Source: Candidatus Borrarchaeum weybense (GTDB lineage Archaea; Asgardarchaeota; Sifarchaeia; Borrarchaeales; Borrarchaeaceae). From it: a DNA stretch of 64,000 nt. The stretch is from contig JAHQJS010000007.1 of assembly GCA_019057385.1 (NCBI GenBank), positions 128,001-192,000 on the forward strand, read 5' to 3'. Positions within the stretch are counted from its first letter, which is position 1, and each line of letters opens with the position of its first letter. Shown piece after piece: positions 730 through 32,250 of this stretch. Under the pieces are notes generated by a model that did no database searches, had not been told where the DNA came from, and saw only the letters and a list, made by a program, of their open reading frames with translations. A program made the translations under genes and the position numbers.

Positions 730-2094
730 TTACCAGCCAGCGAATCTCGCAATTTTTTCATCAGATATTTTGCCTTCTTCAACGTCCTTAATAGACTGGT
801 TAATTATATCAACTGCTTTGTCACAATGTTCTTTGTTAATTATAAGCGGAGGTGTGATCTCTATTGTATTTGAGTGAACACCCACGTAGATTAAAATTAA
901 TCCAAGTTCCCATGCTCGATACATGACTTTAGCGCATTCTAATGAAGCTGGTTCTTTTGTTTTTTGATCTCTAACTAACTCGACACCAATAATCAATCCT
1001 TTTCCACGAACGTCTCCAATCAAACTACGTTCTTCTTGAATTTCACTTAGTCTTTTAATCAGATAATCTCCCATTTCTGCTGCATTCTGTGCGAGATTTT
1101 CTTCTTTAATGACTTCCAAAGTAGCAAGAGAAGCTGCTACTGACACAGGATGTCCACCTGTAGTCAAGAGATGTCCTGCAACCAAAGAATCTAATATTTC
1201 TGACGGAGCAACACATGCGCTTAATGGCATCCCGTTTGCCATAGGTTTGGCCATTGTTATAATATCTGGTTCGATATCAAAGCATTCAATGCCAAACATC
1301 TTTCCAGTTCTACCAAATCCATGTTTTACTTCATCAACTGCGAATAAAATACTGTGTTTCTCACAGAGTTCTTTAAGTCCTTTCAGGAATTCGGGTGGAG
1401 GAGGAATATCACCACCGTCAGATTGGATTGGTTCGATTAGTAGGCATGATGTGTCTTCGGGTGGACAAATCGTTGTCATTACCTGATTTTCTATGAAATC
1501 AACACATTGAAGACCACATGCTGGGCATTCAAGATCTTTTCCGAAAGGGCATCTGTAGCAATAGGCATAAGGAACTTTGACGACATTTGGTAAGCCTACG
1601 ATCTCTGTTTGAGCAGTGTGCCCAGATAAAGTATAAGCGCCCATGGTTTGTCCGTGATAAGCCGCCATAAAACTCATAATGCGTCTTCTTTTTGTAGCAT
1701 ATGGGACTAGTTTATAAATGGTTTCATTCGCGTCAGAACCAGATAACCCGAACCAGACTTTTTTTGCCCAGTCACCAGGCGTGATCTGGATCAATTTTTC
1801 CGCTAATTCGACTACCACTGGATTACTATGCAAAGTAAAGCAATGATGACTTAGTTTTTCGACCTGATCTTGGACTGCTTTTACTATTTTTGGATGTCTG
1901 TAGCCGGCTATAGCAACTGCAGCGCCTGCATTGAAGTCTAAATATTCATTCCCATCAGAGTCGTATAAATACACACCTTTTCCTGATTCAATGGAAAGTG
2001 GATAAAACCGAATATGAATTGAAGATCCAATGACCTTTTCATCTCTATCAATCACGTCAAAAGATTTTGTAACATTTTTTTCCATTGTATTCAC
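730..2094 (-). CDS. Class-III PLP aminotransferase (4-aminobutyrate/diamine aminotransferase-like)
   Basis: SGSDANE, YHG, IEPIQSDGG, DEVKHGFGRTG, MAKPMANGMP, DVRGKGL motifs. Confidence 0.9.
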   Translation of the reverse strand: MNTMEKNVTKSFDVIDRDEKVIGSSIHIRFYPLSIESGKGVYLYDSDGNEYLDFNAGAAVAIAGYRHPKIVKAVQDQVEKLSHHCFTLHSNPVVVELAEKLIQITPGDWAKKVWFGLSGSDANETIYKLVPYATKRRRIMSFMAAYHGQTMGAYTLSGHTAQTEIVGLPNVVKVPYAYCYRCPFGKDLECPACGLQCVDFIENQVMTTICPPEDTSCLLIEPIQSDGGDIPPPPEFLKGLKELCEKHSILFAVDEVKHGFGRTGKMFGIECFDIEPDIITMAKPMANGMPLSACVAPSEILDSLVAGHLLTTGGHPVSVAASLATLEVIKEENLAQNAAEMGDYLIKRLSEIQEERSLIGDVRGKGLIIGVELVRDQKTKEPASLECAKVMYRAWELGLILIYVGVHSNTIEITPPLIINKEHCDKAVDIINQSIKDVEEGKISDEKIARFAGW

Positions 2095-2347
2095 CTAAAT
2101 CTCTTCAATATCCATTGGAAATACTCATCTATTTATTCCCTATATAAAAAACTATGGCTTCCCATGTGTTCTCAGAAACGTGATATTGTTTTCTATTTGC
2201 AACTTAAAGGGTTAAACTTAAATTTCATTAATACTGTTTGATTTCAATACTTTGTATTCTACAACAATTGAAGATGCAAAAATTTTATTGATGTTAACTG
2301 AAATCCTCTCTAAGAAGCAAAAAGTAGTAGTTTTGTGTTGAGAACAG

Positions 2348-3160
2348 GTGACATTTCGTATGAGCGGCGAAAATCTTATTGATGATGAAAAATTTATGCA
2401 AGAAGCATTTAGAATTATAGAAATTGCTGAAGAGCGTGATATAATCTTAAGGTTGCTAGGTTCGATCGCCTTTCGTATTCATTGTCCTAAGTATGCACCT
2501 CTACTGCATCACGGAGCTGAGGTCCACCGATCAATTACAGATATCGACTATATGGCTTATAACAAACACAAAACCCCTATACGAAAGTTAATGTACGACC
2601 TAAGATTTCGTGAGATTTTTGCAGATCCAATCGTCAGTCGGATAGTTTTTCAAAGTCCAAAATACAAGAATTTAAAAGTCGATTTTTTTCTTGAAAGACT
2701 CCGTTTCTGTCACATAATTGACTTTGATAGGAAGAAAAAACGCTTGGAAATTGATAAACCCACCATTCCCTTAGAAGAAATGCTGTTGGAAAAAATGCAA
2801 ATAGTTGAGATCAATGAGAAGGATATCAAAGATACGATTATGCTTGTATGTGAACACGATATCGAAGATGATGCAGAAAAAAATACAGAAATTATTGATG
2901 GAGGTTTTATTGCTAGGATACTGGCTGACGATTGGGGATTTTGGTATACTGTTACAACAAATCTAAATAAAACTAAAGTATGGGTACCAAAATACAGTAA
3001 TGCACTATCAGAAGAAGATCAATCTTTTGCGATAGATAGAATTAATGAACTTTTAGAGCGAATTGATCTGGAAGAAAAGACCAAAAGATGGCAAAAACGC
3101 GCAAAAACTGGCACAAAAAAACGATGGTACGAAGAAGTCCAAAGTTTAGATGTTGATTAG
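2348..3160 (+). CDS. Uncharacterised Pol-beta-superfamily nucleotidyltransferase-like protein
   Basis: LRLLGSIAF...SITDIDY matches the hG[GS]...DxD metal-binding motif; ends in TAG. Confidence 0.6.
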   Translation: MTFRMSGENLIDDEKFMQEAFRIIEIAEERDIILRLLGSIAFRIHCPKYAPLLHHGAEVHRSITDIDYMAYNKHKTPIRKLMYDLRFREIFADPIVSRIVFQSPKYKNLKVDFFLERLRFCHIIDFDRKKKRLEIDKPTIPLEEMLLEKMQIVEINEKDIKDTIMLVCEHDIEDDAEKNTEIIDGGFIARILADDWGFWYTVTTNLNKTKVWVPKYSNALSEEDQSFAIDRINELLERIDLEEKTKRWQKRAKTGTKKRWYEEVQSLDVD

Positions 3161-3168
3161 AATTCTTA

Positions 3169-4128
3169 TTATCCCTCTGAAAACATCCATTTGCATTTTT
3201 TGGGTTTTTTATCTAGAACTAAGATTACTCCGCGAACAACTCCTTCTCCATACTCACTGCCAGGGTTCAAGCAGATAGTTCTTCCGATACGTGTATATCC
3301 CTTGCTTTCGTGAATATGACCATGTAAACCGTATAAAGGTTGGTATTTCTCAATAGCGGCGCGTACTGCTTTGCATCCTACAGGAATCATTTCTGGCTCG
3401 CCTCCTGCTGTCAATACAGGTTTCATGTTTTTATCTAAGAGAGGCGCATAGTCAATGACGGCGTCAAAAGGCGGGCAATGAAAATTGAAAATACAGTTTT
3501 CCATATCATTAACATGTGAAGTCATAGCTTCAATTTTCTGTTCAATTTCTTCTTCTGGAACATCACGTTCACAATGCCACGGAGTAATATTTGCAAATCC
3601 AGTGGAAATCATTTCGTGATATTCGTCTATCTGAATGTTCTTACCTTCTGGAACAATTATTATATCTGATTTCTTCAAAATATCGTCAATAAAATAAGCA
3701 TCATCGTTACCAGGGTTTATGATACACTTGATATTTGTTCCAGCTAATCGTTCTTCAGTTAACACAACCCATTCTTCTAAACGTGCACGAATAAGTTTCT
3801 CAAATAATTCTTTAATTTTGGATCTGTCTTGTCTGAATTCGGATAGTTCATTTTCATTCGTATAATAAAAGTAGGCTCCAATTAGTTTGATATTTTTTTC
3901 TAAGGCTTCAAGTTCCTCTTTAGTTTTCAAAACAAGATCTGAACCTAAATATTCTGCCTCGTGTGAGCCATCATCTTGTTCAACTATCGGAATGATCATT
4001 TTTCCTGTAATATCTCCTCCTAGAACAAGGACATCGGCCTTATACGCCTTTCCAGCATTAATAAACTTACGAAAACAAACGTCACTTCCATGAATATCAG
4101 TTGTGAAAAAGAGTTGAGTTTTTGCCAT
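3169..4128 (-). CDS. Calcineurin-like metallophosphoesterase (Icc-related)
   Basis: TDIHG, GGDITGK, PGNDD, FHCPP, HGHIHE, NPGS motifs. Confidence 0.88.
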   Translation of the reverse strand: MAKTQLFFTTDIHGSDVCFRKFINAGKAYKADVLVLGGDITGKMIIPIVEQDDGSHEAEYLGSDLVLKTKEELEALEKNIKLIGAYFYYTNENELSEFRQDRSKIKELFEKLIRARLEEWVVLTEERLAGTNIKCIINPGNDDAYFIDDILKKSDIIIVPEGKNIQIDEYHEMISTGFANITPWHCERDVPEEEIEQKIEAMTSHVNDMENCIFNFHCPPFDAVIDYAPLLDKNMKPVLTAGGEPEMIPVGCKAVRAAIEKYQPLYGLHGHIHESKGYTRIGRTICLNPGSEYGEGVVRGVILVLDKKPKKCKWMFSEG

Positions 4129-4308
4129 TTTGGTTCTACATCCAAATTTCGCTCAGTGCTAATCGTTCTAGTATAGACAGGATGTCGTAGTAGTAAAAAA
4201 CGAACACAATAAAACTCTTTTGGTTAAGAAAAATAGTTTTTTTTAATTCTTGTTATAAGAAAAAGAAAAAAGGGGTAAGAAGGTAGAGCATTGTTGAAAT
4301 TGTTGAGT

Positions 4309-5934
4309 TTACTCTGGAGGCAATTCTTTATGTGCTAGATGGATTGGTAGACCTTTAGATTGCCAATACGCACGTGCTATGAAGTACCATACAGGTCCTA
4401 TAATCAATGTTATAACCATGCCAATAATATACTCCACAGATACGAAGAATGCAATTGCTCCTGGTGTCAGGGACGCAACAATGACCCAGATTGAAACAAA
4501 TAGGGATAATATCCCGAAGAGACTTATCAAGGGGATTGGTCCGATCATTTTCTTCGCTAGAGGTGGCGCGGCATCAAAGATGTCTTTTCTTCTATAGGGG
4601 AACCATATCGCAGCAATGGATAGAATGAATACTCCTATAAACCAGCCCAACATTGAGTATAGCAGAAACGCAAACACTCCTGTGAAGAACGTCAGGAAAT
4701 TCGCAAATTGAGCAGTTATGAACATTATAAGTATTGCCCAAACTGGATTTCCACGTTTGTCTAGGTCTGCTATTTTACTTGGTAGAAGACGGTCGAAACT
4801 CCATGCAAAGATGTTTCTTGTGTACAAGAATGGAATTACTATACCGCAAGAGCCCACACAAACCATGCATACAGCGAGATTTACCAGTCCAATGATCCAC
4901 ACGTTGGTTGTAGTGAATGCAATCAAATAACTAGGCATTGAATACGCCCAGGTGAATTCATACCAACCAGGATAGCCTAGAGTTGCCAAGAACGATGATG
5001 CGTTGATGAAATCGAAGCCAAAGACAAGATATGTAATGTAGTAAATTGGCCAAACGAGAATACCGAAGATCACAACCGCACCTATCATTGCATAGAGATG
5101 TGTTCTAGTTCCTTTAACTTCACCTGCGCACCAAGCGTTACCGCTGTAGCCTAAGGTTCCTAAAAAGATATGCAGCGTTCCTAAGAATGTTGCAAGGAAT
5201 ATTGGAGTTGCTATGAAGCCATTCGGGACCTGTGCTAGAGCAGCAGTCTCAACAGCAGCTACTGTAGTTCCAGATCTCGCGTCAAAACCAGCTACGAAAC
5301 CAGTGTGTCCTGCGCCTAAAATCGTTGCAAAATAGGCGATAATAGCAACAACAGTTACTGCAAAGATAACATAAGAGGCGCGAATGACCCATTTAGACCC
5401 CCCATAGACTACCAGAGTTCCAATCGAAATAAGAACAAAGGTTATTGCAAATCCAACAAAAGGATCATACATTAGCGCCGCCATATTTATCCAATATGTA
5501 GCTTGTGATGCACTTGGTGCAACTACTGCCAACGCAGAGAACCATGGAGCAAGCCCATAAATAGGCACCCAGCCCACTACAGAGCCAATCCATGACCAAA
5601 GCACCGCAGAGAAATAAAAGTTAACAAGAAATCCCACCGAAGGATGAATTGTCCTTCCAACGAATACATATTCACCGCCTGTACGTGGCATTGACATTGT
5701 AAATAAACCATACATAACTGCAATTGCTAAACTAGCTGGTATAACCAACAAAGCACTTATTGGTAGTTGTGCGCCAGGGAATAGACCTGCAGCAAATGGT
5801 AGTTCAATGAATGCAAACAGAAATCCCATGAAAACGACGTTCATCAGCACTGCTTCAACACCTGAAATGTTTTTTACTAAGCCCGATGCTGTTCTAAGAA
5901 AAACTTTATCTTCGCCCAATTGTTTTTTCTCCAT
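4309..5934 (-). CDS. APC-superfamily amino acid/polyamine permease
   Basis: About 12 TM helices; FLRTASGLVK, MPRTGGEYVF, AGEVK, RNIFAWSFDRLLP. ATG at 5934 preferred to TTG at 5976. Confidence 0.88.
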   Translation of the reverse strand: MEKKQLGEDKVFLRTASGLVKNISGVEAVLMNVVFMGFLFAFIELPFAAGLFPGAQLPISALLVIPASLAIAVMYGLFTMSMPRTGGEYVFVGRTIHPSVGFLVNFYFSAVLWSWIGSVVGWVPIYGLAPWFSALAVVAPSASQATYWINMAALMYDPFVGFAITFVLISIGTLVVYGGSKWVIRASYVIFAVTVVAIIAYFATILGAGHTGFVAGFDARSGTTVAAVETAALAQVPNGFIATPIFLATFLGTLHIFLGTLGYSGNAWCAGEVKGTRTHLYAMIGAVVIFGILVWPIYYITYLVFGFDFINASSFLATLGYPGWYEFTWAYSMPSYLIAFTTTNVWIIGLVNLAVCMVCVGSCGIVIPFLYTRNIFAWSFDRLLPSKIADLDKRGNPVWAILIMFITAQFANFLTFFTGVFAFLLYSMLGWFIGVFILSIAAIWFPYRRKDIFDAAPPLAKKMIGPIPLISLFGILSLFVSIWVIVASLTPGAIAFFVSVEYIIGMVITLIIGPVWYFIARAYWQSKGLPIHLAHKELPPE

Positions 5935-6108
5935 TTGATTTTTAGACTTAAGTTCAGTTTCTAAGCTATTAGTCAATAAGTAATATATAAATTCTTACAT
6001 TTCTGTCATGCCCAATATTTCAAATACAATCTAAACGCTTTACAAAATTAATTATAACTTATACTTAGCAAATAATAAAAATTGCAAAAATATTAATCGA
6101 TTATCTGA

Positions 6109-9311: not shown

Positions 9312-10571
9312 TTAGAGTTTATATATGCGCCTTGTGTTTTCTGATAAGATAAGCTTCGCGAATTTATACGCCTCATCTTCATTGATAGCCCCAAATTCGA
9401 TAAATTGTGATAGTACACGAGCTAATGCCTTTTTCGCAATTTTTGCTCCTAACCAATAAAGTTCAGGGGTATTAAATGCATCGCTACCAATCATAACTTT
9501 TGTTAGGGGTGCAAATTCTAAGGTTCTCATTAAATTCGTTGTAGATCCAGCACTCGTAAATGGAAACATCACTGATAATTCAAGATAGACGTTAGGGAGT
9601 ATATTCAGCAGATTTGTAGCCTCAGAGACATAGGGAAACCCTGCATGCGCTAAGATAATCTTTGCATGTCTTATTTTTTTGTCTCTTAAGAACTTAAATA
9701 GGCAAACTGGATTACATTGATCCACCAGTGTATCCACATCTCCAATGCCAGTATGAAACTGAAAGGGAAGATCTAATTTGATACATTTCTCCACTGTTCG
9801 CCATATCAGAAAATCACGAAGATTTTTTAGTCCCCATCGCTCAACTTCTGGAGATTTATCCTGATGATACTTGATAAAATCGTTTCTAGCATCAGACTCA
9901 TCTGGATTTCTTATGTTTAGCCCAGTACGATATGCAACAATCGATTTAAATCCGCGAGAATTGTATTTAGTAATTGCTGTATTCATTTCATTATCATAGT
10001 TAACAAGAAATTCATCAAAATCTGAAGAAACAAGAAGTGCATTCTTAATCAGATTTTCAATTCGACTAAATCGTACAACTTGGATAGGTACTAATTGTTC
10101 GAATTCTGACCATTCTATTGTTTTAAGAGGTTTATCCACGGCGATCTCAGAAAACCCATCATCAATAATCAGCGCCTCAAGGCGTGCATCTGTAAACAAC
10201 TCGATTAAATAGCTTCTAAAATCTACTGCTTTTTGATTTCTTATGTTAATTATAGTATCTAAATCATCAGCACAATTAAAAAACTGTGCAAGTTCATGTA
10301 ACATCTGTCTGTAAAAAAGAGCATGTTTCGCATGGTATTGAAGTTCCTGTAAAGTTTGTGCGACTCTATATTTTTGATCCAGTTCAACTTTTTCCTTATT
10401 TGAAGCTTTGTTGTATTCTTCAAGAATTGATGTCGGAATTAAAAAATCTGGATAAAAAGATCCGAAATTTATGTCTTGGGCGAAATTTTCTGCAGTAAGA
10501 GTCTTGCTTATATCTTCTCTAAAAACATGACAATGTGTATCAATAACGGGATATTCAGATAAATCCAGCAA
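9312..10571 (-). CDS. Amidohydrolase_2-family protein resembling the FluG/NodGS N-terminal domain
   Basis: IDTHCH, FKSIVAYRTGL, QFHTGIGD, LAHAGFPY, PNVYLELS, KVMIGSDA...PELYWLGA. Confidence 0.82.
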   Translation of the reverse strand: MLDLSEYPVIDTHCHVFREDISKTLTAENFAQDINFGSFYPDFLIPTSILEEYNKASNKEKVELDQKYRVAQTLQELQYHAKHALFYRQMLHELAQFFNCADDLDTIINIRNQKAVDFRSYLIELFTDARLEALIIDDGFSEIAVDKPLKTIEWSEFEQLVPIQVVRFSRIENLIKNALLVSSDFDEFLVNYDNEMNTAITKYNSRGFKSIVAYRTGLNIRNPDESDARNDFIKYHQDKSPEVERWGLKNLRDFLIWRTVEKCIKLDLPFQFHTGIGDVDTLVDQCNPVCLFKFLRDKKIRHAKIILAHAGFPYVSEATNLLNILPNVYLELSVMFPFTSAGSTTNLMRTLEFAPLTKVMIGSDAFNTPELYWLGAKIAKKALARVLSQFIEFGAINEDEAYKFAKLILSENTRRIYKL

Positions 10572-11509: not shown

Positions 11510-12721
11510 ATGAGACGATTCAATTATTGTGATGAAAACGAAATACTTGATGGACGAGCAACTGATGCGTATTTTTTGAGGACTTTTGAAGTTCTTAAGG
11601 CTAAACGTATTGACAAAAGGGTAGTTATGGAAGCCATGATTAAAGGCTTTCCTGATAAAGACTACAACTTCGGTGTTTTTTCGGGAATTCAAGAAGTTAT
11701 CAATTTGTTAAGTTATGTCGCTGAGAATGTAGCAGAATCTAACTCTTTAAATGTCTGGGCAATGCAAGATGGTGAGATATTCTTTCCAAATGAACCTGTT
11801 CTTCGAATTGAAGGAAGATATACTGATTTCGGCATATATGAAACCGCCATTTTAGGGTTCATTTCTTATGCTTCTGGTATTGCAACAAAAGCTGTTAGGT
11901 CTCGAATTGTTGCCAATGACAAACTTGTTTTTAGTTTTGGGACCAGAAGACTTCATCCAAGTGTAGCACCAGTAATAGAACGCGCTTGTTATGCTGGAGG
12001 ATTTGATGCTGTGTCCAGTATTGTTGGAGCAGAATATATGGGTAAGAACGCAGTAGGGACAATGCCACATGCATTAATGTTACTTTTTGGCAACTCAGCG
12101 GATGCGTTTCATGCTTTTAATGAGGTATTACCAAAAGAAGTCCCAAGAATTGCTCTCGTTGATACATACGGATCCCCAAAGGAAGAAACATTACTTGCCC
12201 TCGAATGCATGGGTCCAAACCTTTATGGCGTACGGGTTGATAGTGGAAATCTACTCAAAGTTGGAAAGGAATTGCGCTGGGAGTTGGATATTCGAGGAAG
12301 AGAAGATGTAAAATTATTTGCGAGTGGTGGATTAGACGAGTATGAAGTTAAGAGACTTGCAGAGGTTTACGATGGATTTGGTATAGGCACTAAAGTAGCC
12401 AATGCTCCCGTTATGGATTTTGCATTGAAAATCGTAGAAGTAGATGGAATACCAAGAGCAAAAGTAGGAAATTATAGTGGAGCAAAGGATGTTTATCGAT
12501 TGAAAAACGAATTTCGCGACCTCGTTGTTCCCAAGGGTAAGGAAATAACAAATGGGTATAAACCTTTACTTCACCAAGTCATAAGAGATGGGAAGGTAAT
12601 AAAAGCCTTTGAATCCGTAGATGATGCCAGAGAAAGAGTGCTTTCTCAGATTAAGAGGCTTCCTGACGATTTAAAAAGCTTGTACAAAAAAGATGGCGAT
12701 AGAGTAAAGTTTTTTTCATAG
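11510..12721 (+). CDS. pncB: Nicotinate phosphoribosyltransferase
   Basis: TDAYF, FGTRR, GTMPHA, LVDTY, GVRVDSG, FASGGLDE, FGIGT. ATG at 11510 preferred. Confidence 0.9.
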   Translation: MRRFNYCDENEILDGRATDAYFLRTFEVLKAKRIDKRVVMEAMIKGFPDKDYNFGVFSGIQEVINLLSYVAENVAESNSLNVWAMQDGEIFFPNEPVLRIEGRYTDFGIYETAILGFISYASGIATKAVRSRIVANDKLVFSFGTRRLHPSVAPVIERACYAGGFDAVSSIVGAEYMGKNAVGTMPHALMLLFGNSADAFHAFNEVLPKEVPRIALVDTYGSPKEETLLALECMGPNLYGVRVDSGNLLKVGKELRWELDIRGREDVKLFASGGLDEYEVKRLAEVYDGFGIGTKVANAPVMDFALKIVEVDGIPRAKVGNYSGAKDVYRLKNEFRDLVVPKGKEITNGYKPLLHQVIRDGKVIKAFESVDDARERVLSQIKRLPDDLKSLYKKDGDRVKFFS

Positions 12722-18359: not shown

Positions 18360-19766
18360 TTAAGTAGTTTTTTCAATCTCTTTTACAACCTCTGAAAATA
18401 TTTCTAACCCTTTTTCAAGTAATTCTTTTGTTATAGTCAAGGCAGGGATAAAACGTGCAACATTTATCCAGTGACCTCCCTTCCAAACGATTACACCACG
18501 TTCAAAGCACTTTGCAACGATTTTCTTCAGAAGATCTTCAGCAGGCTTTTTACTATCTTTGTTCTTAACAAATTCTACCCCTAAAAATAGCCCTTTGCCA
18601 CGAACATCACCAATGCAATTAACTTCATCTTGTAGATCTTTTAGCAATTTAAGCGCATAATCGCCAAGTTCTGCGGATCTTTTTAGAAGTTGAGTTTCTT
18701 CTGTGAATTTAATGGCCGCAGCACCTGCAGCACATCCAAGAACATTTCCTCTAAATGTTCCCATGTGCCCACCTGGACCCCACGCCTCATCGAACTCTTT
18801 TTTATACATCATCCCTGCTATTGGGATTCCAATTCCTCCAAGTGATTTCGCCATAGTAATAGCATCTGGTGTAACATCGAAGTGTTCGCAACTCCACCAA
18901 TATGTACCAGTACGTCCGAATCCGGCTTGAACTTCATCACAAACAAATAGAATATCGTTTTCTTTGCAGAGTCTTGCTAAACCCTGAATAAACTCCTTTG
19001 GTGGAATTAGTATACCGCTTTCGCCTTGGATTGGTTCCACAATCATGCCTGCTGGTTGAACGAGACCTGAGTAAGGATCCTTAAAGAGATGTTCGATATA
19101 TCTCAAACATTCCATATCACATTCTTCTGCTGATTCTTTTCCAAAGGGACAACGATAACAATATGGGTATGGAGCATGAACAATGCCTGGAATTAAGGGC
19201 AAGTAGTTCTCTTTGTAACTTTTCTTTGCTGTGGCTGCTAAAGATCCAGATGTTTGCCCATGATATCCACCTTCAAATGTAATTATTCTATAGCCCTTCT
19301 TGTTTACTTTAGCTAGTTTTATGGCTGCTTCCACGGCATCAGAACCCGATGGACCACCAAAAATTATCTTTGAATTGCCTTTCATAGATCCTGGCGCAAT
19401 TCTTGAAAGTGCTTCTAAAATGTCAATACGGGCTTTGGTTGGAATATCTAATGTATGTATAATCTTATCAGCCTGTTTTTTAACTACTTCTAAAACATAG
19501 GGGTTTTGATAACCTACATTGCATACAGAAACACCAGCTGAAAAGTCAACATAGACATTTCCATCAACATCCATTAATGTTGCGCCTTTTGCAGCCTCCA
19601 GAGCAAATGTATAAGTCAGTGGATAACTAACTACATTAGCATCAAGGAGTTCTTGTTTTTCTAAAATCGCACGAGATTTCGGTCCTGGGATTTCTGTTAT
19701 GACTTTTGGAGCTCCTTGAAAATGAAGTTCTTTAAATTCATCTTCTATAATATTATTTCCCTCCAT
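18360..19766 (-). CDS. Class-III PLP aminotransferase (diaminobutyrate/4-aminobutyrate aminotransferase-like)
   Basis: PGPKS, GPSGSDAVEAAIKLA, VEPIQGESG, DEVQAGFGRTG, MAKSLGG, HMGTFRGN. Confidence 0.9.
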   Translation of the reverse strand: MEGNNIIEDEFKELHFQGAPKVITEIPGPKSRAILEKQELLDANVVSYPLTYTFALEAAKGATLMDVDGNVYVDFSAGVSVCNVGYQNPYVLEVVKKQADKIIHTLDIPTKARIDILEALSRIAPGSMKGNSKIIFGGPSGSDAVEAAIKLAKVNKKGYRIITFEGGYHGQTSGSLAATAKKSYKENYLPLIPGIVHAPYPYCYRCPFGKESAEECDMECLRYIEHLFKDPYSGLVQPAGMIVEPIQGESGILIPPKEFIQGLARLCKENDILFVCDEVQAGFGRTGTYWWSCEHFDVTPDAITMAKSLGGIGIPIAGMMYKKEFDEAWGPGGHMGTFRGNVLGCAAGAAAIKFTEETQLLKRSAELGDYALKLLKDLQDEVNCIGDVRGKGLFLGVEFVKNKDSKKPAEDLLKKIVAKCFERGVIVWKGGHWINVARFIPALTITKELLEKGLEIFSEVVKEIEKTT

Positions 19767-19892
19767 GAGCGATTCATTCTATTAATTCAGTTGAAGAGTT
19801 TGTACACATAGTATATAGTATTTAAAAAATAATTCGTTGCGTTTGGAAATAAAAAAAATATGAATTTGTGAAAAAGATGAATGAATAGTAAC

Positions 19893-21236
19893 CTATCTGT
19901 TGTTCACATCACGCAGAACTTCTTCTAATATATTGAGTCCAATATCCAAAAGTTCTTCTGTAATAACTAGGGGTGGCGCGATTCGAATCGTAGAAACCCC
20001 TGCACTAATTATGGCCAGTCCTTTTTTGAAACACTGAAAAATAATTTCTTTTACTTTCTCCTTTGCTGGTTTTTTGGTCTTTCTGTCTTTAACAAGTTCG
20101 ATGCCTATCATCAATCCTTTTCCTCTTACGTCGCCGATTAGTTCATACTTTTCTTTCATTTCATTAAGTCGTTTTAATGTGTGTCCGCCTAATTTAGCCG
20201 CATTATCGAGCAAGTTTTCTTCTTCGATGATATCGAAGGTTGCAATTGCAGCAGCACAAGACACGGGATTACCTCCAAAGGTTGATGCATGAGCACCGGG
20301 CTCCCAATCCATGACATCCTCTTTAGCAATAACTGCTCCAAGTGGCAATCCTGAGGCAATACCTTTAGCAATTGCAATAATCTCCGGTGTAACGTTCCAA
20401 TGCTCAATAGCAAACATTTTACCAGTGCGGGCCATGCCAGATTGAACTTCATCAGAAATGAGTAGCATGTGATATTTAGCCGCTAATTTTCTTAATCGCT
20501 GAAAATAGCCTTCAGGTGGAACTATATATCCTCCTTCACCTTGTATTGGTTCAAATATGAAACCGAGCGTTTCTTCAGGTGGCAAATAGGTTTCAAAAAC
20601 CATTTCGTCGATGAAATCAACGCAATAAAAGTTGCACTCAGGGTATGTTTGTTTGTAAGGACACCGGTAACAGTAGGGATAAGGCACATGAGTGACCCCA
20701 GGGACAAGAGGGAAGAAATATCTTCTCTGAACAACTTTTGATCCTGTTACACTAAGTGCGCCCATCGTTCTCCCATGAAATGCTTTAGTGAAAGCAATAA
20801 TTTGAGGTTTTCTAGTATGCCATTTAGCGACTTTAAGAGATGCTTCAACAGCTTCTGCACCGCTATTCGTGAAAAATATCTTTTTAGGAAAACTCCCAGG
20901 AGTATTATTGTACAGTTTTTGTGCAAGTTCTACGCTTTTTTGGTAATAGAAGTCAGTATTGGAGTAATGAATAAGTTTTGTAGCTTGATGTGTAATCGCA
21001 TTCACTACCTTTGGATGCGAGTGCCCAACATTACATACACAGATTCCTGCGTTAAAATCGATATAAATATTTTCGTCAACATCTTTTATTAGACATCCCT
21101 CAGCGGATTCAGCAACGAGGGGATAAAATCGTGCATAAGACGGCGAGATGTATTTATCATCAAGTTCCAGCAACTTTTTTGCCTTAGGACCAGGTGGTGT
21201 TACCTTGATATTTGGAATAGTTATGTTCTCTATCAA
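19893..21236 (-). CDS. Class-III PLP aminotransferase (acetylornithine/ornithine aminotransferase family)
   Basis: PPGPKA, NSGAEAVE, FHGRT, EPIQGEGG, DEVQSGMARTG, AKGIASG, HASTFGGNP. Confidence 0.9.
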   Translation of the reverse strand: MIENITIPNIKVTPPGPKAKKLLELDDKYISPSYARFYPLVAESAEGCLIKDVDENIYIDFNAGICVCNVGHSHPKVVNAITHQATKLIHYSNTDFYYQKSVELAQKLYNNTPGSFPKKIFFTNSGAEAVEASLKVAKWHTRKPQIIAFTKAFHGRTMGALSVTGSKVVQRRYFFPLVPGVTHVPYPYCYRCPYKQTYPECNFYCVDFIDEMVFETYLPPEETLGFIFEPIQGEGGYIVPPEGYFQRLRKLAAKYHMLLISDEVQSGMARTGKMFAIEHWNVTPEIIAIAKGIASGLPLGAVIAKEDVMDWEPGAHASTFGGNPVSCAAAIATFDIIEEENLLDNAAKLGGHTLKRLNEMKEKYELIGDVRGKGLMIGIELVKDRKTKKPAKEKVKEIIFQCFKKGLAIISAGVSTIRIAPPLVITEELLDIGLNILEEVLRDVNNR

Positions 21237-21530
21237 CTCCAGTCACCTCAAATGATTATTACACAAACACATTAAAAAAACCATAGGATTTCATTTCGAA
21301 CGAAAAGAAGTGGTTTTAGCACTCGATTTTTCGAAAAATGAAGTCTATTCGATATAGAAATTTTTATCTATTCTTGTGAATACACTTGAATTTGATTTCC
21401 ACATGCGAATTTTTAAATATCCTATTTGTAAAGAAACGAACTACATTTACGATTTGGCAAGGGTATTATAAGCAGCATAGTTAAGTCCTGTAAATTTGGC
21501 TTAGAAATTTGGTAGAAGGTGTCATTTAAA

Positions 21531-22889
21531 ATGGCGAATGAAGCCAAGATAATGGAGACAATTGAGAGGGAAAGAATCAAAATAATTCGATTTGTATGGA
21601 TTGGCAATGATGGAGTCATTCGAGCAAAAGCCTCGACAGCGAAACATCTAAAATCACATGTCAAAAGGGGAATCGGGATAGCTAAAGGCATTCAGTCATT
21701 TAATGCATTAGACCATCTAGTACTCGATGGTTCCTTTGGTGCTCCAGCAAAAGAATTTCAAATTTATCCGGATCTACAGACATTTAAGATATTACCTTAT
21801 GCAAAACATTCTGCTCGTTTTATATGTGAATTACTGAATCCCGATTTTGAGCCTTCAGCAACGGACGCTCGCGCATTTTTACGCCGAATCATTTATCAAG
21901 CAAAAGAAATGGGCTTTCTTCCTATGGCGGCTGGGGAATTAGAATATTATCTTACCAAACGGGATGATAGTGGCAATATGATTCAACAAAATAACGAGAA
22001 ATATGGAACGACTACCCAGTACGACTTAGCAAATGATGTAATACAAGATTGGCTAGATACGTTTGAAAAAATGGGACTCGACATAGAACGTGTTATCTCT
22101 GAATACGGCGGTGCACAATACGAAATAACGATAAGATATACAGATGCACTAACTGCTGCCGACAATGTTTTAACGTTCAAAGATGCAGCTAAAGGAGTAG
22201 CTTTGAATCATGGATATTCAACAACTTTCTTGCCCATGCCATTTCCTGGAGGGGCAGGATCGGGAATGCATTTTCACATCAGTTTATGGGATCTCAATGG
22301 GAAGAATAATCTCTTCTATTCAGAAAGTGATGAATATTTCCTCTCTGACACGGCAAAATATTTCGTTGGTGGAATAATGGCTCATCTAAAAGGTTTATGT
22401 GCTGTATGTGCACCAAATCCAAACAGTTACAAGCGTCTTTTACCGCATTCATGGGCACCAGCACATTGTATATGGGGCGTTGATAATCGAGCTGCTGCCA
22501 TAAGAATTCCCACACGTGCAGAAGGAGATGAGGCAGAACCAACGCGAATAGAATTTCGTGTGCCTGATGGCACAGCGAATCCGTACTTCGCTTTAGGTAC
22601 AACCTTGGCTTGTGGCTTAGAAGGAATCAAAAATAAAATAGATCCGCCAGAACCAGCTCATATAGAACCTGGCGACCTGGTGGATGATGATCTTGAAAAG
22701 AAAGGCATTGAGTACTTGCCAAGAACTCTGGGCGAAGCACTTGCAGAATTTAAAAAGGATGCTTTCTTTAAGGAAATTATGGGTGATTTCGGTTTTAATG
22801 AGTTCTATAAGGTCAGAATGTCTGAGTGGAGAGAGTATTGCAGTGTTGTTACTGAATGGGAATTAAAAAACTATCGCGATACGTTTTAA
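21531..22889 (+). CDS. Glutamine-synthetase-like gamma-glutamyl-amine ligase
   Basis: GELEYY, EYGGAQYE, GSGMHFHISL, NSYKRL, NRAAAIRIP, RIEFR. Flap reads SWAP where true GS has YEAP. Confidence 0.85.
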   Translation: MANEAKIMETIERERIKIIRFVWIGNDGVIRAKASTAKHLKSHVKRGIGIAKGIQSFNALDHLVLDGSFGAPAKEFQIYPDLQTFKILPYAKHSARFICELLNPDFEPSATDARAFLRRIIYQAKEMGFLPMAAGELEYYLTKRDDSGNMIQQNNEKYGTTTQYDLANDVIQDWLDTFEKMGLDIERVISEYGGAQYEITIRYTDALTAADNVLTFKDAAKGVALNHGYSTTFLPMPFPGGAGSGMHFHISLWDLNGKNNLFYSESDEYFLSDTAKYFVGGIMAHLKGLCAVCAPNPNSYKRLLPHSWAPAHCIWGVDNRAAAIRIPTRAEGDEAEPTRIEFRVPDGTANPYFALGTTLACGLEGIKNKIDPPEPAHIEPGDLVDDDLEKKGIEYLPRTLGEALAEFKKDAFFKEIMGDFGFNEFYKVRMSEWREYCSVVTEWELKNYRDTF

Positions 22890-22922
22890 TCCAAAGGAGG
22901 GAATAATCTGAGCAATGAACAA

Positions 22923-23555
22923 TTGTTTGAAGGTATTAAAAATTCCATAATTGACCTAGATAGAGAAGAGTGCCTTAGATTAGCACAAGAAGCTCTTGAT
23001 GCTGGAATTAATCCACTTGAAGTTATTGAGAATGGACTAAAGAAAGGAATTCAGATTGTTGGAACGAAGTATGAAGAAGGTGAGTTGTTTATAGTAGATT
23101 TGATGATGGCAGCATCAGCTATGAAAGCTGCAGTCGAACTCCTTGAGCCCCATATTTCGTCAGAAATGAAAGAAAAGGCTAGTGCTGGGAAGATTATTAT
23201 TGGAACAGTTGAGGGCGACATTCATGATATAGGAAAGACCATTGTGTCAACCTTATTAGCTGCCAATGGTTTCGAAGTAATCGATTTAGGTTCAGAAGTA
23301 CCTGCCTCAAAATTTATAGAAAAGATCAAGGAACTCAAACCAGATATCGTTGGAATGTCTGCGCTCCTAACAACTACGATGCCAAAAATGCAGGAAGTTA
23401 TTGAAGCGCTCGAAAAAGAAGACTTGCGTGATGCAGTAAAGGTTATGATAGGAGGGGCTCCTGTTACAAAGGAATTTGCAGCAAAGATTGGTGCAGATGG
23501 CTATGCTAAGGATGCGGAAGAAGCTATAAAATGGGCTAAAGAGCTTGCCTCTTAA
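22923..23555 (+). CDS. mtbC: Methylamine-type corrinoid protein
   Basis: B12-binding motif GDIHDIGK...SALLTTTM...KVMIGGAP with four-helix cap; immediately upstream of mtbB. Confidence 0.88.
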   Translation: MFEGIKNSIIDLDREECLRLAQEALDAGINPLEVIENGLKKGIQIVGTKYEEGELFIVDLMMAASAMKAAVELLEPHISSEMKEKASAGKIIIGTVEGDIHDIGKTIVSTLLAANGFEVIDLGSEVPASKFIEKIKELKPDIVGMSALLTTTMPKMQEVIEALEKEDLRDAVKVMIGGAPVTKEFAAKIGADGYAKDAEEAIKWAKELAS

Positions 23556-23755
23556 ATAGCAATAAACTGTAGGTATTTCTCTATTTTTATTTTTCTTTGG
23601 TCGTTTTTCGAAGGATTCTTGCGTTTTTTTAATCACTTATCCAATATTTTCATTTCTCTAGAATTTCAGAGGAAAGATTTTTTAGGGGATTCTGCTTTTA
23701 CAGATGTTTAAAAAATTGATTACAACAGAGAATCTTCTAGCTAGGAGGTCAACTT

Positions 23756-25159
23756 TTGACCGAATTCACAATGCGTACTGGTACGGGAAAACCGTTATAC
23801 ATGTCTAAAGAACAAATTCGGTCAGACCTCGAAGACGGTGCAAACTGGGCTGCAACAAAAGCAAAGATACCAGAACTGTCAGCTAATGAAATAGATCATA
23901 TCCTTGATATACTCGTGAGACCAGGAAGACAAATTGGAGTTGAACAAGGAAAAGAAATTGTTTTAACTACAGATGGCGGCACCACAAGATATACAGGTAT
24001 TTGCAGATACTCAGCTATGCCTGTATCAAGAGAACAGGCTGTAATAATCGGAGAACGTTTCATTGGTTTCGATACGTTTGAAATTGGACACGCTGACTAC
24101 AGTTTTAGACCAGTAAAAACAATTGCTATGGATGAGGCAACAGTAATCGAGAATACAGAACTTAACAGTGTGATTCCAGTATTCTATGGAGCAATGCCTA
24201 ACCTAGGAATCTATTTCCAATCGCAAGGTGGGAAATGGCCATCTCCTACAGATTTCATGAACGAAGGTAAGATTGACGAGGCAAGGGCGGTTCAAGAGTC
24301 TGCTGCAGAAGATATGACTAATGACATAGTCTACGTAGCAAAAATCTTCGCGGAGACTGGTCTTGACGGTCTTGATATAGATACTACTGCTGCTGCTGGT
24401 GATGCAGATTTCTATGGAACTTTAAAAGCCATTGAGATAATAAAAAAGGAAACTAATTTAGCACTAGAGGTTGGCATGGCTGGCGAAAAAGTATTTGGAT
24501 TACATGCAGATCTTAAATATGATGGTGAACGATTAGCAGGTATGTGGCCACATCAACAAAGTTTGATGGTAGAAAAGGCAGGTGGAGATCTCTTTGGTGC
24601 TGTCATTAATACAGACACAGGTAAATCTTGTCCGTGGAATTTAGCCCGTTCGATAACTTTTGTTAAGGAGGTTATGAAGACAGTCAGTATTCCGGTGCAT
24701 CCTAACATGGGAATGGGTGTCGGTGGAATCCCTATGTGCGAAGTTATTCCAATGGATGTCGTCACTCGATCTGGTGTTGCAATGGTAGAACTTACTAATT
24801 GTGATGGCGTATAGGTAGGAACAGGAGACCCTGTTGGTATGGATTTGGCTTATCGGATGAGCATTGGAATGGGAGGCATCGGCACAGCAGGTGATATAGT
24901 AGCACGCCTTCAAATGACTAAGAGAATGAAACTTGACGCTGCCAAGGAATTTGTTGCTAAAAAATTAGGTGTTGATCAATTCACGCTTCACGATACTCTT
25001 CAAATGAGAGATCTTCGCGATGAACTTGAGCTTGGTTCTGTTACCGCACTTCCAGGAAAGGCCAAAGGTATTGAGGCAAAAGCTAGAATCGCAGATCTGT
25101 TTGATATTAAAATCAATTCTGTGGAAAGGCTTAAGAAGAAACTTTCTTTAGACTTTTAG
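23756..25159 (+). CDS. mtbB: Dimethylamine:corrinoid methyltransferase, 467 aa with pyrrolysine at residue 353 (in-frame TAG 24812-24814)
   Basis: ORFs 23756-24814 and 24839-25159 are in one frame. Read-through gives AMVELTNCDGV-O-VGTGDPVGM, matching the MtbB DGxOxGxGDPxG motif. Also DYSFRPVK, FYGAMPNLG, NMGMGVGGIPM. Confidence 0.94.
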
Positions 25160-25163
25160 CATA

Positions 25164-25248
25164 GTGCTGGCAACGAAATCAACTGAAAGATCGGCAAGGC
25201 TTGATTGGGTTGATTTCAGATGGGCTCACCCCCGCAAGGGGTCAGCAC
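25164..25248 (+). ncRNA. Putative structured RNA in the mtbB 3' UTR
   Basis: GTGCTGGC(25164-71) pairs with GTCAGCAC(25241-48); GAAATCAAC(25175-83) pairs with GTTGATTTC(25209-17); CCC-GCAA-GGG GNRA hairpin at 25231-40. Confidence 0.45.
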
Positions 25249-25608: not shown

Positions 25609-26685
25609 TTGTCAAAATTATTCGAACCCTATGATTTCTGTGGTATTAAACTAAAAAACAGATTTATTCGATCAGCAACCAGTGAAAATTTGGCTAAAAA
25701 TAGATTACCTACTGAACAATTGTTTAAATTATACAAAGAACTTGCTCGTGGTGAAATAGGGTTAATCATTACAAGTGCAATGCGACCTGATCGAACTTGG
25801 ACAAGAGGACCGCAACAAAAGAATATGGTTATTGATAGTGATGATTCGATTCCTAATTTTAGAGAATTGACTAATCTTATGCATTCCTTTGGTTCTAAAG
25901 TCGCATTACAGTTAGGTTCATTTTTCGTTTTTAACGGCGAATCTGTTGCCCCCTCTGCTATACCATATACTTGGATTCCTGGTGTTACGCCCAGGGCTTT
26001 AACAATTCAAGAAATTAGAGAAATAGTTGAAATTTATGGTACTGCTGGAGCACGGGCTAAAAAGGCGGATTTTGATGCAGTTCAGATTCATGCAGCACAT
26101 GGATATCCTCTTTCTAGATTTCTCTCACCACGTTTCAATAAAAGAACGGATGAATATGGAGGTAGCCCTAAAAATAGAGCACGCATTATAATAGAGATAG
26201 CAACTGAAATAAAAAAAAGAGCAGGAAGCGATTTTCCGGTTTTTGTTAAAATGGGCGTGGTAGATTTCTGTGAGGGAGGATTGACAAAAGAAGATGGAGT
26301 AGAGGTCGCAAAAGCTTTATCTCAAAATGGTGTCTCCGCAATTGAAACTTCTGCCGGGACACCTGGTTCAGAAATGAATGCCCTTGGTGCAACAAACAAT
26401 TCTCGATGGACAGAAGGTTATTTATTGGATTATGCAGCGGCAATAAAAGCAGAAGTAGATGTACCAGTTATTTTAGTCGGTGGGCTTCGTGATTTAAGCA
26501 TGATGGAAGATATTATCTCCCAAGGAAAAGCTGACTTAGTTGCAATGAGTAGACCATTTATCATTGAGCCTCATCTCATCAAAAGATGGAAGGAGGATGG
26601 AGATCAAGAGCCCTCACATTGCATATCGTGCAATGGATGTATGGATCTCTATATGGATGGAGAAATTGTAGAATGTATCATTTAA
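25609..26685 (+). CDS. NADH:flavin oxidoreductase (Old Yellow Enzyme family)
   Basis: LFEP...LKNRFIRSAT, FDAVQIHAAHGYPLSRFLSP, NKRTDEYGGS, VGGLR, SRPFIIEP, CISCNGC. Confidence 0.9.
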   Translation: MSKLFEPYDFCGIKLKNRFIRSATSENLAKNRLPTEQLFKLYKELARGEIGLIITSAMRPDRTWTRGPQQKNMVIDSDDSIPNFRELTNLMHSFGSKVALQLGSFFVFNGESVAPSAIPYTWIPGVTPRALTIQEIREIVEIYGTAGARAKKADFDAVQIHAAHGYPLSRFLSPRFNKRTDEYGGSPKNRARIIIEIATEIKKRAGSDFPVFVKMGVVDFCEGGLTKEDGVEVAKALSQNGVSAIETSAGTPGSEMNALGATNNSRWTEGYLLDYAAAIKAEVDVPVILVGGLRDLSMMEDIISQGKADLVAMSRPFIIEPHLIKRWKEDGDQEPSHCISCNGCMDLYMDGEIVECII

Positions 26686-29730: not shown

Positions 29731-30828
29731 TCATGTAGTTAACAGATTATGAATTATCTGATACCAGTCCAGAAGTCCTTGAATTTCAACATATTCTTCA
29801 GGGCCATGCCAATTTTTGCCCCGAGGTCCAAATTCTACCACTTGTACACCTGTTGGGGCATAAAACACTGCATCGGAACTCCCTGTCGCGATGTACAGCT
29901 CTGGCTTTTCGCCTACCACCTTTTCAGTCTCTTTAACGAGCGTCTGAACCAATTCAGAATTAGGATCTGTATATACTGGAGGAACCCTTGAGGTTGTTTC
30001 TCTAAGAATTTCACAATCAATATCTTTCATAGATTTCTCGAAAGCTACGAGAATTTCCTCTTCAGATACTGTAGCAGGTCTCCTAACATCAACTTTCAAT
30101 TCACATAATTCAGGAATTTGATTGATTTTTGTGCCGCCGCGAATAATAGACGGCGTAACAGTCGTTGCCTCTTTCCCCAGTGTTTCGTAATCGAATAACT
30201 CTTGAGATGTTAAGTTAGTAATAAACTTTGCAGCGCAAAGGATTGCATTTTTTCCTTCCCATGGTCTGCTTCCATGACCTGGAATTCCATGAAATGTTAA
30301 TTTTTGCGAAAAAATGGCTTTAGAGCCATAACATATCCTATTTCCATCCATAGGTTCGCCAAAAATACACCAGTCCGCAGGATATTTCGATACCAGAGCG
30401 CCAGTACCATTTTCACCACTCACTTCTTCATCAGAAACAAATTCAAAAATAGCTTTTTTAGTCAGGATACTCTCATTTTTGAGGAGTTTAATGATCAAAG
30501 ACACCATAACTGCCGCAGCAGCTTTTGCATCTGCTGAACCGCGTCCGTAAACTTTTCCATCTTTTACAGTTCCTTTGCATCTTGATTTTTCGCTCTCAGG
30601 AACAACGTCCAGATGTGTGTTTATTACAACTCGTTGAGAACCCTGTCCAACTTCAACAACAAGATTTTTAAGTCCACCAGATTCGAACAGCGATGTGTTA
30701 ACATCTTCTTTAGCAAGAGTTACGTTTATGTACTCCATTGCCTTGTTTGGTCCTTCTGGGTATTTATAGGAAGGAATTTCAATTAAATTGAGCAGATAAC
30801 CAACAATTTCATCACTTAACTGTTCCAT
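29731..30828 (-). CDS. M20-family metallopeptidase (ArgE/DapE-like deacylase)
   Basis: NTHLDVVP, YGRGSADAK, SDEEVSG, GEP, GHGSRP, GGTKINQIP, HGPEEYV. Confidence 0.9.
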   Translation of the reverse strand: MEQLSDEIVGYLLNLIEIPSYKYPEGPNKAMEYINVTLAKEDVNTSLFESGGLKNLVVEVGQGSQRVVINTHLDVVPESEKSRCKGTVKDGKVYGRGSADAKAAAAVMVSLIIKLLKNESILTKKAIFEFVSDEEVSGENGTGALVSKYPADWCIFGEPMDGNRICYGSKAIFSQKLTFHGIPGHGSRPWEGKNAILCAAKFITNLTSQELFDYETLGKEATTVTPSIIRGGTKINQIPELCELKVDVRRPATVSEEEILVAFEKSMKDIDCEILRETTSRVPPVYTDPNSELVQTLVKETEKVVGEKPELYIATGSSDAVFYAPTGVQVVEFGPRGKNWHGPEEYVEIQGLLDWYQIIHNLLTT

Positions 30829-30882
30829 AATATCCCTCTGTTATCTTGAAAATCTTAATTAGTGCAAAAAAGAGCTGAAAAG

Positions 30883-32250
30883 TTAAAAAGCTCTCATATA
30901 CATCCGACGTTCCCAATCTGTAACATGTTCACGATAAGTAATCCATTCTGTCATCTTCACTTTGATAAACTCTTCAAAGATAGTCGTGCCAAAGGTCTCT
31001 TTGATTACAGTGTCTTTCTTAAGGTCCTCTAACGCTTCAAAAAGTGTCCTCGGAAGCATTTTTGCGCCCTGACGGGCGAGTTCTTCATCACTTAAGGCAC
31101 TGACATCTTTCTGAATAGGTTCTGGAGGTTCGATTTTTTCTTCAATACCCTTTAATCCACATGCTAGTATTGCTGCAAGGACTAAATATGCATTACATGC
31201 AGGGTCTGGACTTCTAAATTCAAGACGCGTATCTTGTTCCTTCGCATCTAACGGAATACGAATTAAGGTAGATCTGTTATTAAATCCCCAGGTGTTGTTT
31301 ATGGGTGCCCATACATTAGGTAAAAGACGTTTGTAAGAGTTTACAGTACATGCACCGACTGCAGTGATGGCTTTAGCATGCTTTAGAAGGCCGCCGATGT
31401 AATAGTACATCATTTCGGATAAATTATGTCCTTTCGGATCATTTGGCTCGTAAAACAAATTTTGACCGTCTAAATCGTAAATTGAGATATGTACATGCAT
31501 ACCTGAACCAAATAGATGCTGAAATGGTTTAGGTAGGAAAGTTGCTCGATAGCCAAACTGTCTTGCAAGTTCACGTGCAACATTCATGAAGGTAATTTGA
31601 TTGTCTGCAGCTTCTACAGGGGAATAGTGGTTGATATTAACTTCCATCTGTGCAGGACCTCCTTCTTTTGTTACTACGGTAGCATCAATTCCCATCTGAG
31701 CAAGCGTTTTACAATAGGTTCGATAGTACTCCTCCCATTCATCCTGCCCTGACATCGCAAAAATCATTCCATGTCCTTCCTTTTCTGCGTAATTTGCAGG
31801 TGCGTAGGAGCCGTCTTCGTATTCTTCAAGAACATAATATTCTGTTTCAAATCCTATCTGTGGAAAATATCCTAGTTCGTTGTAGCGTTTAATAAGTCTT
31901 TTAAGCATTAATCGTGGGCAGCATTCCCACTCCTTACCGTCATGAGTATATAAGTCACAGAAGACTTTAGCCGATTTTGAGGCGTATGGTAATACTGTAA
32001 ATGTATCAAAATCCGCTTTGATCGTAAAATCTTCTGATTGTGCGCCATATTTATTGCCGAAGGCAAATTGATCAAAAGAAGTGAAGTCCATCGTCCCCAT
32101 GTTCATTTTTAGCCCGTGGTCTAATGCTTTTTCAATAGCCTGCAATATTGCGGCGCGTCCCCTCATGATACCGTTTAAATCACAAAATTGGAATCTAACA
32201 CTTTCGATATTTTTTTCTCTTATAATCTCAAGCACTGTATCTTTGCCCAT
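30883..32250 (-). CDS. Second glutamine-synthetase-like gamma-glutamyl-amine ligase
   Basis: GFETEYY, KEGGPAQMEV, FLPKPF, GSGMHVHIS, NSYKRLLPNVWAP, NRSTLIRIP, RLEFRSPD. Confidence 0.85.
   Translation of the reverse strand: MGKDTVLEIIREKNIESVRFQFCDLNGIMRGRAAILQAIEKALDHGLKMNMGTMDFTSFDQFAFGNKYGAQSEDFTIKADFDTFTVLPYASKSAKVFCDLYTHDGKEWECCPRLMLKRLIKRYNELGYFPQIGFETEYYVLEEYEDGSYAPANYAEKEGHGMIFAMSGQDEWEEYYRTYCKTLAQMGIDATVVTKEGGPAQMEVNINHYSPVEAADNQITFMNVARELARQFGYRATFLPKPFQHLFGSGMHVHISIYDLDGQNLFYEPNDPKGHNLSEMMYYYIGGLLKHAKAITAVGACTVNSYKRLLPNVWAPINNTWGFNNRSTLIRIPLDAKEQDTRLEFRSPDPACNAYLVLAAILACGLKGIEEKIEPPEPIQKDVSALSDEELARQGAKMLPRTLFEALEDLKKDTVIKETFGTTIFEEFIKVKMTEWITYREHVTDWERRMYMRAF

Follow-up and report, generated by a model that had tools for sequence, protein, structure and literature searches.

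The 64,000-nucleotide stretch of Candidatus Borrarchaeum weybense DNA analyzed here (the window; contig C7:128001-192000 of a 4.18-Mb, 8-contig genome) carries a gene for a glutamine synthetase (GS)-like protein, GSL1, ahead of genes for a corrinoid protein (mtbC) and a pyrrolysine (Pyl)-dependent dimethylamine methyltransferase (mtbB), which raises the question of what amine this ligase serves. A reading made from the sequence alone had placed the GS-like gene 33 nt upstream of the corrinoid gene with mtbB next, a layout confirmed by the gene calls (Table 1), and had proposed that monomethylamine released by MtbB is captured as gamma-glutamylmethylamide, as in the bacterial N-methylglutamate (NMG) route. 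Our comparisons somewhat favor a different answer, in which GSL1 would be a gamma-glutamyl-amine ligase of a polyamine-type amine-catabolic island, and its link to the mtb genes would be lineage-specific and not that of a dedicated methylamine trap. While the kind of enzyme and the Sifarchaeial Pyl system are known already, the GSL1 clade is uncharacterized and its juxtaposition with mtb genes is lineage-specific.

GSL1 matched Pfam Gln-synt_C with 350 bits, and its flap, LLPHSWAP, aligned position by position with LVPGYEAP in solved glutamine synthetases, placing Trp312 (numbered on the 456-aa GTG-start open reading frame, not the 452-aa ATG form) at the position of the flap Glu (Glu327 in S. 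typhimurium numbering). The earlier observation that SWAP replaces the YEAP of ammonium-using GS was thus borne out. The equivalents of the metal, ATP, and glutamate ligands (E129, E131, E212, E220, H269, H271, R321, R339, R344, E357, and R359) were all kept in the alignment, and among the catalytic positions those of the ammonium site alone differed from GS. Because all these ligands are present, GSL1 should be a catalytically active ligase; moreover, its dN/dS of 0.09-0.17 indicated purifying selection and therefore a functional gene where it is retained. The NCBIfam models ranked in the order NF045547 (gamma-glutamylputrescine synthetase; 416 bits, cut-off 650), TIGR00653 (GlnA; 308.8 bits, cut-off 429.15), and TIGR03105 (type III/GmaS; 286.3 bits, cut-off 469.6), with GSL1 below the cut-off each time.

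The amine pocket of GS-type enzymes is formed between subunits. At its Asp50'/Ser53' site, MAFFT paired Asp65, which is invariant, with Asp50 and placed Val68 opposite Ser53, with a 10-residue insertion blurring the register and leaving Asn62 equally eligible. That Asp65 may sit at the Asp50' position would suit an ammonium-using glutamine synthetase isoenzyme with an atypical flap, as would the top PDB sequence matches of GSL1, which were true GS I-alpha enzymes, and the GSWAP-type protein that is the sole GS-family gene in four related Bathyarchaeia (G400, G434, G436, and G437; L039). The last argument is weak, as no GS-family gene was found at E<=1e-30 in 23 of the 61 genomes of that Bathyarchaeial order. 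We consider ammonium use very improbable, since the flap Glu is missing clade-wide, the GlnA model score is short of its cut-off, and the genome has a canonical GYEAP GlnA on contig C4, adjoining GOGAT-like genes. In addition, GlnA-2 of Haloferax (H. mediterranei) has glutamate-putrescine ligase activity and, according to its authors, lacks the residues essential for glutamine synthesis (PMC8394153).

Phylogeny placed GSL1 near that type of enzyme. In a maximum-likelihood tree of 52 rows, whose long reference branches leave the deeper placement of the references uncertain, GSL1 fell into a 19-row clade (support 100) beside an 18-row group (support 100) containing Haladaptatus GlnA2, while GmaS/GlnT (99) and PuuA/IpuC/NpaA1 diverged earlier and true GS lay outside. 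A tree with GlnA, GmaS, and PuuA references had been suggested as a check of the methylamine proposal, and by setting GSL1 apart from GmaS and beside the haloarchaeal GlnA2 group it spoke against that proposal. The best annotated plasmid match to GSL1 was likewise a haloarchaeal glnA2 (gamma-glutamylputrescine synthetase; 39.8% identity). GSL1 resembles haloarchaeal GlnA-2 in its top family model, in the Trp replacing the flap Glu, in the 10-residue Asp50'-loop insertion, in the QSFN[AS]LDHL motif, and in having Amidohydro_2, M20, and permease genes as neighbors; it differs in its distance from the NF045547 cut-off, in its separate, well-supported clade, and in the position aligned with Tyr179, which is not the Ala reported for GlnA-2. 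The GSL1 clade is an uncharacterized, well-supported group of GS-like ligases of Sifarchaeia, Bathyarchaeia, and relatives, in which the motifs GSWAP, QSFNALD, and ERLKKEYGH are strongly conserved. A 91%-identical orthologue of GSL1 lies on a contig of Candidatus Sifarchaeum marinoarchaea (L038). Fused FluG-like relatives of at least 799 aa were not found at E<=1e-40, which is weak evidence.

The neighbors of distant clade members were then compared with the genes of the window. MtbB was missing from every GSL1-clade locus at 40-54% identity and also from the Bathyarchaeia genomes carrying the clade. Instead, these loci held homologues of the window's Amidohydro_2 gene (37-42% identity to 9312-10571; directly adjacent to the GS-like gene in L122, L126, L128, and L129), class-III aminotransferases (up to 62% identity to 730-2094 and ~50% to 18360-19766), APC permease (45% to 4309-5976), metallophosphoesterase (51% to 3169-4128), and 270-aa protein (37-38% to 2348-3160), together with a gamma-glutamyltranspeptidase (GGT) that has no homologue in the window. 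The gene order in L126 is Amidohydro_2, GS-like, aminotransferase, permease, and phosphoesterase, and the Haladaptatus glnA2 cluster (L198) contains an M20 hydrolase, a permease, and a homologous Amidohydro_2 gene. Because the distant loci, like the Haladaptatus cluster, carry amine-catabolic genes, genes of this kind are taken to be the ancestral functional partners of GSL1. In the window, the Amidohydro_2 gene lies 11 kb from GSL1, and the pyl and mtb genes are intermingled with those of the conserved island across about 33 kb, an arrangement that, among the loci compared, is confined to Sifarchaeia. The sole Pyl-dependent gene of the Sifarchaeia is thus located inside an amine-catabolic island.

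Similar arrangements are known from other amine ligases. In S. coelicolor, the gene for the gamma-glutamylpolyamine synthetase GlnA3 (SCO6962) lies next to that for the amidohydrolase SCO6961, and in FluG the two domains form a single protein (PMC6478659); the pairing of GS-like and Amidohydro_2 proteins seen in GlnA3/SCO6961, FluG, and NodGS, likened here by description (PMC6478659, PMC5403932), recurs in the distant GSL1 loci. The E. coli Puu pathway follows a matching logic, in which the amine is gamma-glutamylated, modified at its far end, and released by hydrolysis, with the permease and class-III aminotransferase as analogues of PuuP and PuuE. PuuA itself is unlike GSL1 in its flap Tyr and its distant long branch in the tree, and no homologues of the PuuB oxidase or of PuuD (C26) were detected. 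By analogy, GSL1 would use ATP to phosphorylate the gamma-carboxyl of glutamate, and a primary organic amine, most likely of the polyamine or omega-amino type, would then attack the acyl phosphate. The ligase would form one part of a set with Amidohydro_2, class-III aminotransferases, an APC permease, and M20 or GGT hydrolases, whose order of action we infer; this set would resemble Puu/GlnA2/GlnA3-type gamma-glutamylation with transaminases in place of the O2-dependent oxidase. On this view, regulation or position would tie GSL1 to dimethylamine demethylation, in this lineage only, with no obligatory hand-off of monomethylamine. More broadly, the conserved partner set of the clade points to anaerobic gamma-glutamyl-mediated amine catabolism.

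Alternatively, GSL1 could have become a gamma-glutamylmethylamide synthetase by convergence and capture the monomethylamine that MtbB sets free, either to assimilate its nitrogen or to detoxify it. Its likeness to GmaS consists of the superfamily, the chemistry, and the Trp at the flap-Glu position (Trp300 in RhGmaS; PMC7948447), with only W-A-P in common within the flap. The same Trp was also found in GSL2 (the second GS-like ligase of the window), Aminobacter GmaS, Aquabacterium GlnT, Haladaptatus GlnA2, and IpuC, whereas PuuA has Tyr and NpaA1 Leu, and Glu was seen only in E. coli GlnA and the organism's own C4 GlnA. Since GmaS, haloarchaeal gamma-glutamylputrescine synthetase, and IpuC share it, the flap Trp is not a pointer to methylamine. 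Nor is it fixed even among mtbC-linked copies, as the 80%-identical Sifarchaeial orthologue (P0005 on L120) has a KMCTP flap with Cys for Trp, while the others have GSWAP or HSWAP, and this further argues against a methylamine trap.

The residues that define GmaS were missing from GSL1. In RhGmaS, Asp177, Glu186, and Arg312 are strictly conserved catalytic residues, and the methylamine pocket is made up of Tyr147, Gln175, Asp177, Glu179, Glu186, Asn188, and Lys30' (PMC7948447); the GSL1 equivalents of Gln175, Asp177, and Asn188 are Arg, Ile, and Thr, and the clade consensus at the Asp177 site is Lys. Three features common to both solved GmaS sequences (7CQL and 9QUR) are missing from GSL1, namely a GAGFAG loop free of insertions, the block YQxDHEDANGQFE, and six residues inserted in the flap ahead of TWAP. 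Its score against the GmaS model is also far below the cut-off. The Aminobacter reference cluster reads mgsABC-gmaS-mgdABCD, so that its GmaS is verified by context, whereas GSL1 has no linkage to mgsABC or mgdABCD. A tblastn search of the genome with the Aminobacter NMG-pathway proteins found no SoxD/SoxA-type NMG dehydrogenase, and retrieved only two split-GOGAT-like sets (24-33% identity) on C4, one of them next to the true glnA. The bacterial NMG route therefore has no visible continuation in this genome. Taking these points together with the tree and the clade members that exist without MtbB, we regard capture of monomethylamine by GSL1 as unlikely.

The methyltransferase itself fits its family. 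MtbB (PF09505) scored 520.6 bits with TIGR02368 against a cut-off of 369.1, its gene has a single in-frame TAG at codon 353, exactly where the Rfam PYLIS_2 match begins, and pylBCD, pylSn/pylSc, and tRNA-Pyl are all within the window, so that score, in-frame UAG, and Pyl machinery agree on its membership. The stop codon of mtbB is also TAG (25157-25186 region), and read-through with Pyl would add 8 residues before a TGA. Sun et al. (2021) already described the Sifarchaeial Pyl machinery with MtbB as the sole UAG-Pyl gene and MtmB without Pyl (PMC9723677). Their system has the same pylSBCD/pylT layout as this window, and their text makes no mention of glutamine synthetase, polyamines, or a GS-like gene upstream of mtbC (PMC9723677).

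The window contains no MtmB-family gene, in agreement with the earlier reading. Three such genes are found on contig C4 (811276-812652, 879948-881294, and 944974-946323; L001-L003), all without an in-frame stop, and alignment of one of the homologues with M. barkeri MtmB (1L2Q) put His where the latter has Pyl202. Corrinoid-protein genes adjoin two of the three, and the genome as a whole has nine MtbC-like corrinoid paralogues, one MtbB, and three GS-family genes; neither McrA nor MttB-family genes were found in it. Among 400 genomes of the phylum, MtbB was confined to the Sifarchaeum genus, apart from fragments in one genome of a different family, where the homologue is split over several frames, one piece with a TAG (G339:C10 118187-119942; L209-L215), and looks like a decaying gene.

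Whether GSL1 and the methyltransferase genes are expressed together was approached by reading the spacers. Because the 33-nt spacer between GSL1 and mtbC has a GGAGG motif and neither a T-run (oligo-T) nor a TATA-like element, the two genes are probably on one transcript, an arrangement probably limited to Sifarchaeia. Such co-transcription would favor a methylamine trap. mtbB possibly has its own promoter, given the terminator-like T5-T7 runs and the TTTAAAAAA box that precede it. A transcript common to Amidohydro_2 and pylBCD was considered and set aside, since a T7 run and a TATA-like box intervene.

A natural deletion in a congeneric genome (G001) bears on both genes. Its contig L216 (C107) aligned to the window up to 21503 and again from 22808, with about 1.3 kb missing, and the gap removes nearly the entire GSL1 coding sequence. 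What remains is the promoter region upstream of the gene, its final 26 codons, the Shine-Dalgarno motif, and an intact mtbC-mtbB with its TAG. The same genome has a clean deletion of the OYE flavoprotein gene that follows mtbB in the window and keeps the gene for a 557-aa membrane-anchored protein; the two deletions correspond to 21504-22807 and 25609-26685 of the window and to the L216 regions 8550-8950 and 11167-11650. Because the GSL1 promoter region was retained together with mtbC-mtbB, transcription of mtbC from that promoter gains support. At the same time, the deletion shows that GSL1 is dispensable for retaining the Pyl-dependent methyltransferase, and the survival of mtbCB despite loss of GSL1 argues against a trap for its product.

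The interleaving of pyl/mtb and island genes could also mean that the island is a single pathway for an N-methylated amine or polyamine, in which the APC permease imports the compound, MtbB/MtbC demethylate it to another primary amine than monomethylamine, GSL1 gamma-glutamylates that product, and transamination follows; a similar mix of genes in L129 is in line with this. We hold it to be improbable, however, because MtbB lies comfortably above its dimethylamine equivalog cut-off and nothing suggests an altered substrate, because pylBCD and mtbB appear to have promoter- and terminator-like signals of their own, and because the G001 deletion argues against dependence.

Several observations weigh against the polyamine-type assignment of GSL1. 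GSL1 is under the cut-off of every equivalog model, its substrate class being drawn from neighbors and relatives only, and tea theanine synthetase is a GS-like enzyme outside the GmaS clade that uses a small alkylamine (PMC9909507). With no Pyl-containing MtmB in the organism, the methylamine made by MtbB needs a fate, and the lack of Pyl in all three MtmB homologues is a point for its capture by GSL1. The order AT3, GSL1, mtbC, and mtbB, with AT3 divergent, is retained within the genus (G002, G003, G004, and metagenome contigs L118 and L119), and L120 retains GSL1-mtbC, so that seven Sifarchaeial sequences in all share the tight junction, the most divergent of them at 80% protein identity, which fits a functional tie and would likewise favor the trap. 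Finally, on L129 (3631-12418, Ga0187878_1000053), an unrelated metagenome contig, genes for an M42 peptidase, a URO-D-fold methyltransferase, a corrinoid protein with 48% identity to MtbC, a class-V aminotransferase, a GS-like protein, Amidohydro_2, and GGT follow one another in the same orientation. Corrinoid methyl transfer and a gamma-glutamyl module are brought together there in an independent instance, and this second case of corrinoid and GS-like genes side by side counts in favor of a methylamine trap. Corrinoid matches near GS-like genes in the actinobacterial contigs L093 and L069 were discarded as irrelevant, since they lie inside 1200-1300-aa open reading frames, presumably MetH.

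These points can be combined in a specific form, in which a GlnA2-like ligase was co-opted in Sifarchaeia and came by convergence to gamma-glutamylate methylamine or another small alkylamine, being co-transcribed with mtbC and trapping the monomethylamine from MtbB, to give a hybrid of methanogen-type and bacterial-type steps in an Asgard archaeon without methanogenesis or a Pyl-MtmB. We judge this unlikely. If true, a methylamine trap would explain the fate of the dimethylamine-demethylation product in a non-methanogenic Pyl-using Asgard archaeon and would represent convergent evolution of GmaS activity.

For the sequence-only reading, the comparisons gave a divided outcome. Its view that GSL1 is not an ammonium GS held, given the flap and the canonical GYEAP GlnA elsewhere, as did the kinship with gamma-glutamyl-amine ligases, but the GmaS-like hand-off of methylamine found no support, since the GmaS features and clade were wanting, no NMG dehydrogenase was found, the ancestral partners are not mtb genes, and G001 lost GSL1 alone of the three genes. 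Synteny upheld the GSL1-mtbC linkage in Sifarchaeial sequences and gave no MtbB at the more distant loci. The sequence-only reading had named a linkage that is not conserved and mtmB elsewhere in the genome as findings that would count against it, and both apply in part: the linkage was not conserved, and MtmB-family genes do exist elsewhere, though without Pyl.

Table 1. Features of the window discussed in the text
Feature	Position	Strand	Basis or remark
GSL1, GS-like putative gamma-glutamyl-amine ligase, 452 aa, flap HSWAP	21531..22889	+	Pfam/NCBIfam scores, flap alignment, start codon, dN/dS
33-nt spacer GSL1/mtbC with GGAGG Shine-Dalgarno-like motif	22890..22922	+	Direct sequence reading; junction retained in G001 after deletion
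mtbC-type corrinoid protein gene	22923..23555	+	TIGR02370; Pfam B12-binding, B12-binding_2
200-nt spacer mtbC/mtbB with T5-T7 runs (terminator-like), then TTTAAAAAA box and AGGAGG	23556..23755	+	Direct sequence reading; putative function
mtbB, dimethylamine:corrinoid methyltransferase; Pyl codon TAG 24812-24814; PYLIS 24812-24911	23756..25159	+	
Two class-III (omega-)aminotransferases, divergent from GSL1	18360..21236	-	Homologues adjoin GSL1-clade genes in distant contigs
Amidohydro_2 protein gene	9312..10571	-	Homologues beside GSL1-clade genes and in haloarchaeal glnA2 cluster
Third class-III aminotransferase, 270-aa protein, metallophosphoesterase, APC permease	730..5976	.	Set flanks GSL1 homologues in L126, L127
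GSL2, second GS-like ligase (flap NVWAP), with adjoining M20 hydrolase	29731..32250	-	

The start of GSL1 was set at the ATG at 21531, as in the L119 orthologue a TGA separates this codon from the GTG further upstream; the stop codon is at 22887-22889. GSL1 and mtbC share one reading frame, with a lone TAA between them (22887-22925), and the start of mtbC is ambiguous between TTG 22923, which is 22 nt away from the GGAGG, and CTG 22908 in the same frame, at a distance of 7 nt. The corrinoid protein scored 242 bits with TIGR02370 (cut-off 215).

In a search with ARAGORN run without the intron option, only 17 tRNAs were recovered from the 4.18 Mb, 11 of them in tight, bacterial-style arrays on the 179-kb contig C1; this contig could belong to the 7% contamination, or archaeal tRNAs with introns could have escaped detection. 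The 557-aa protein (26852-28525) had no Pfam or NCBIfam family match and has three N-terminal transmembrane helices and a large soluble domain; it is neither a permease nor a RamA. Its gene is conserved behind mtbB in every congener, the deletion variant among them.

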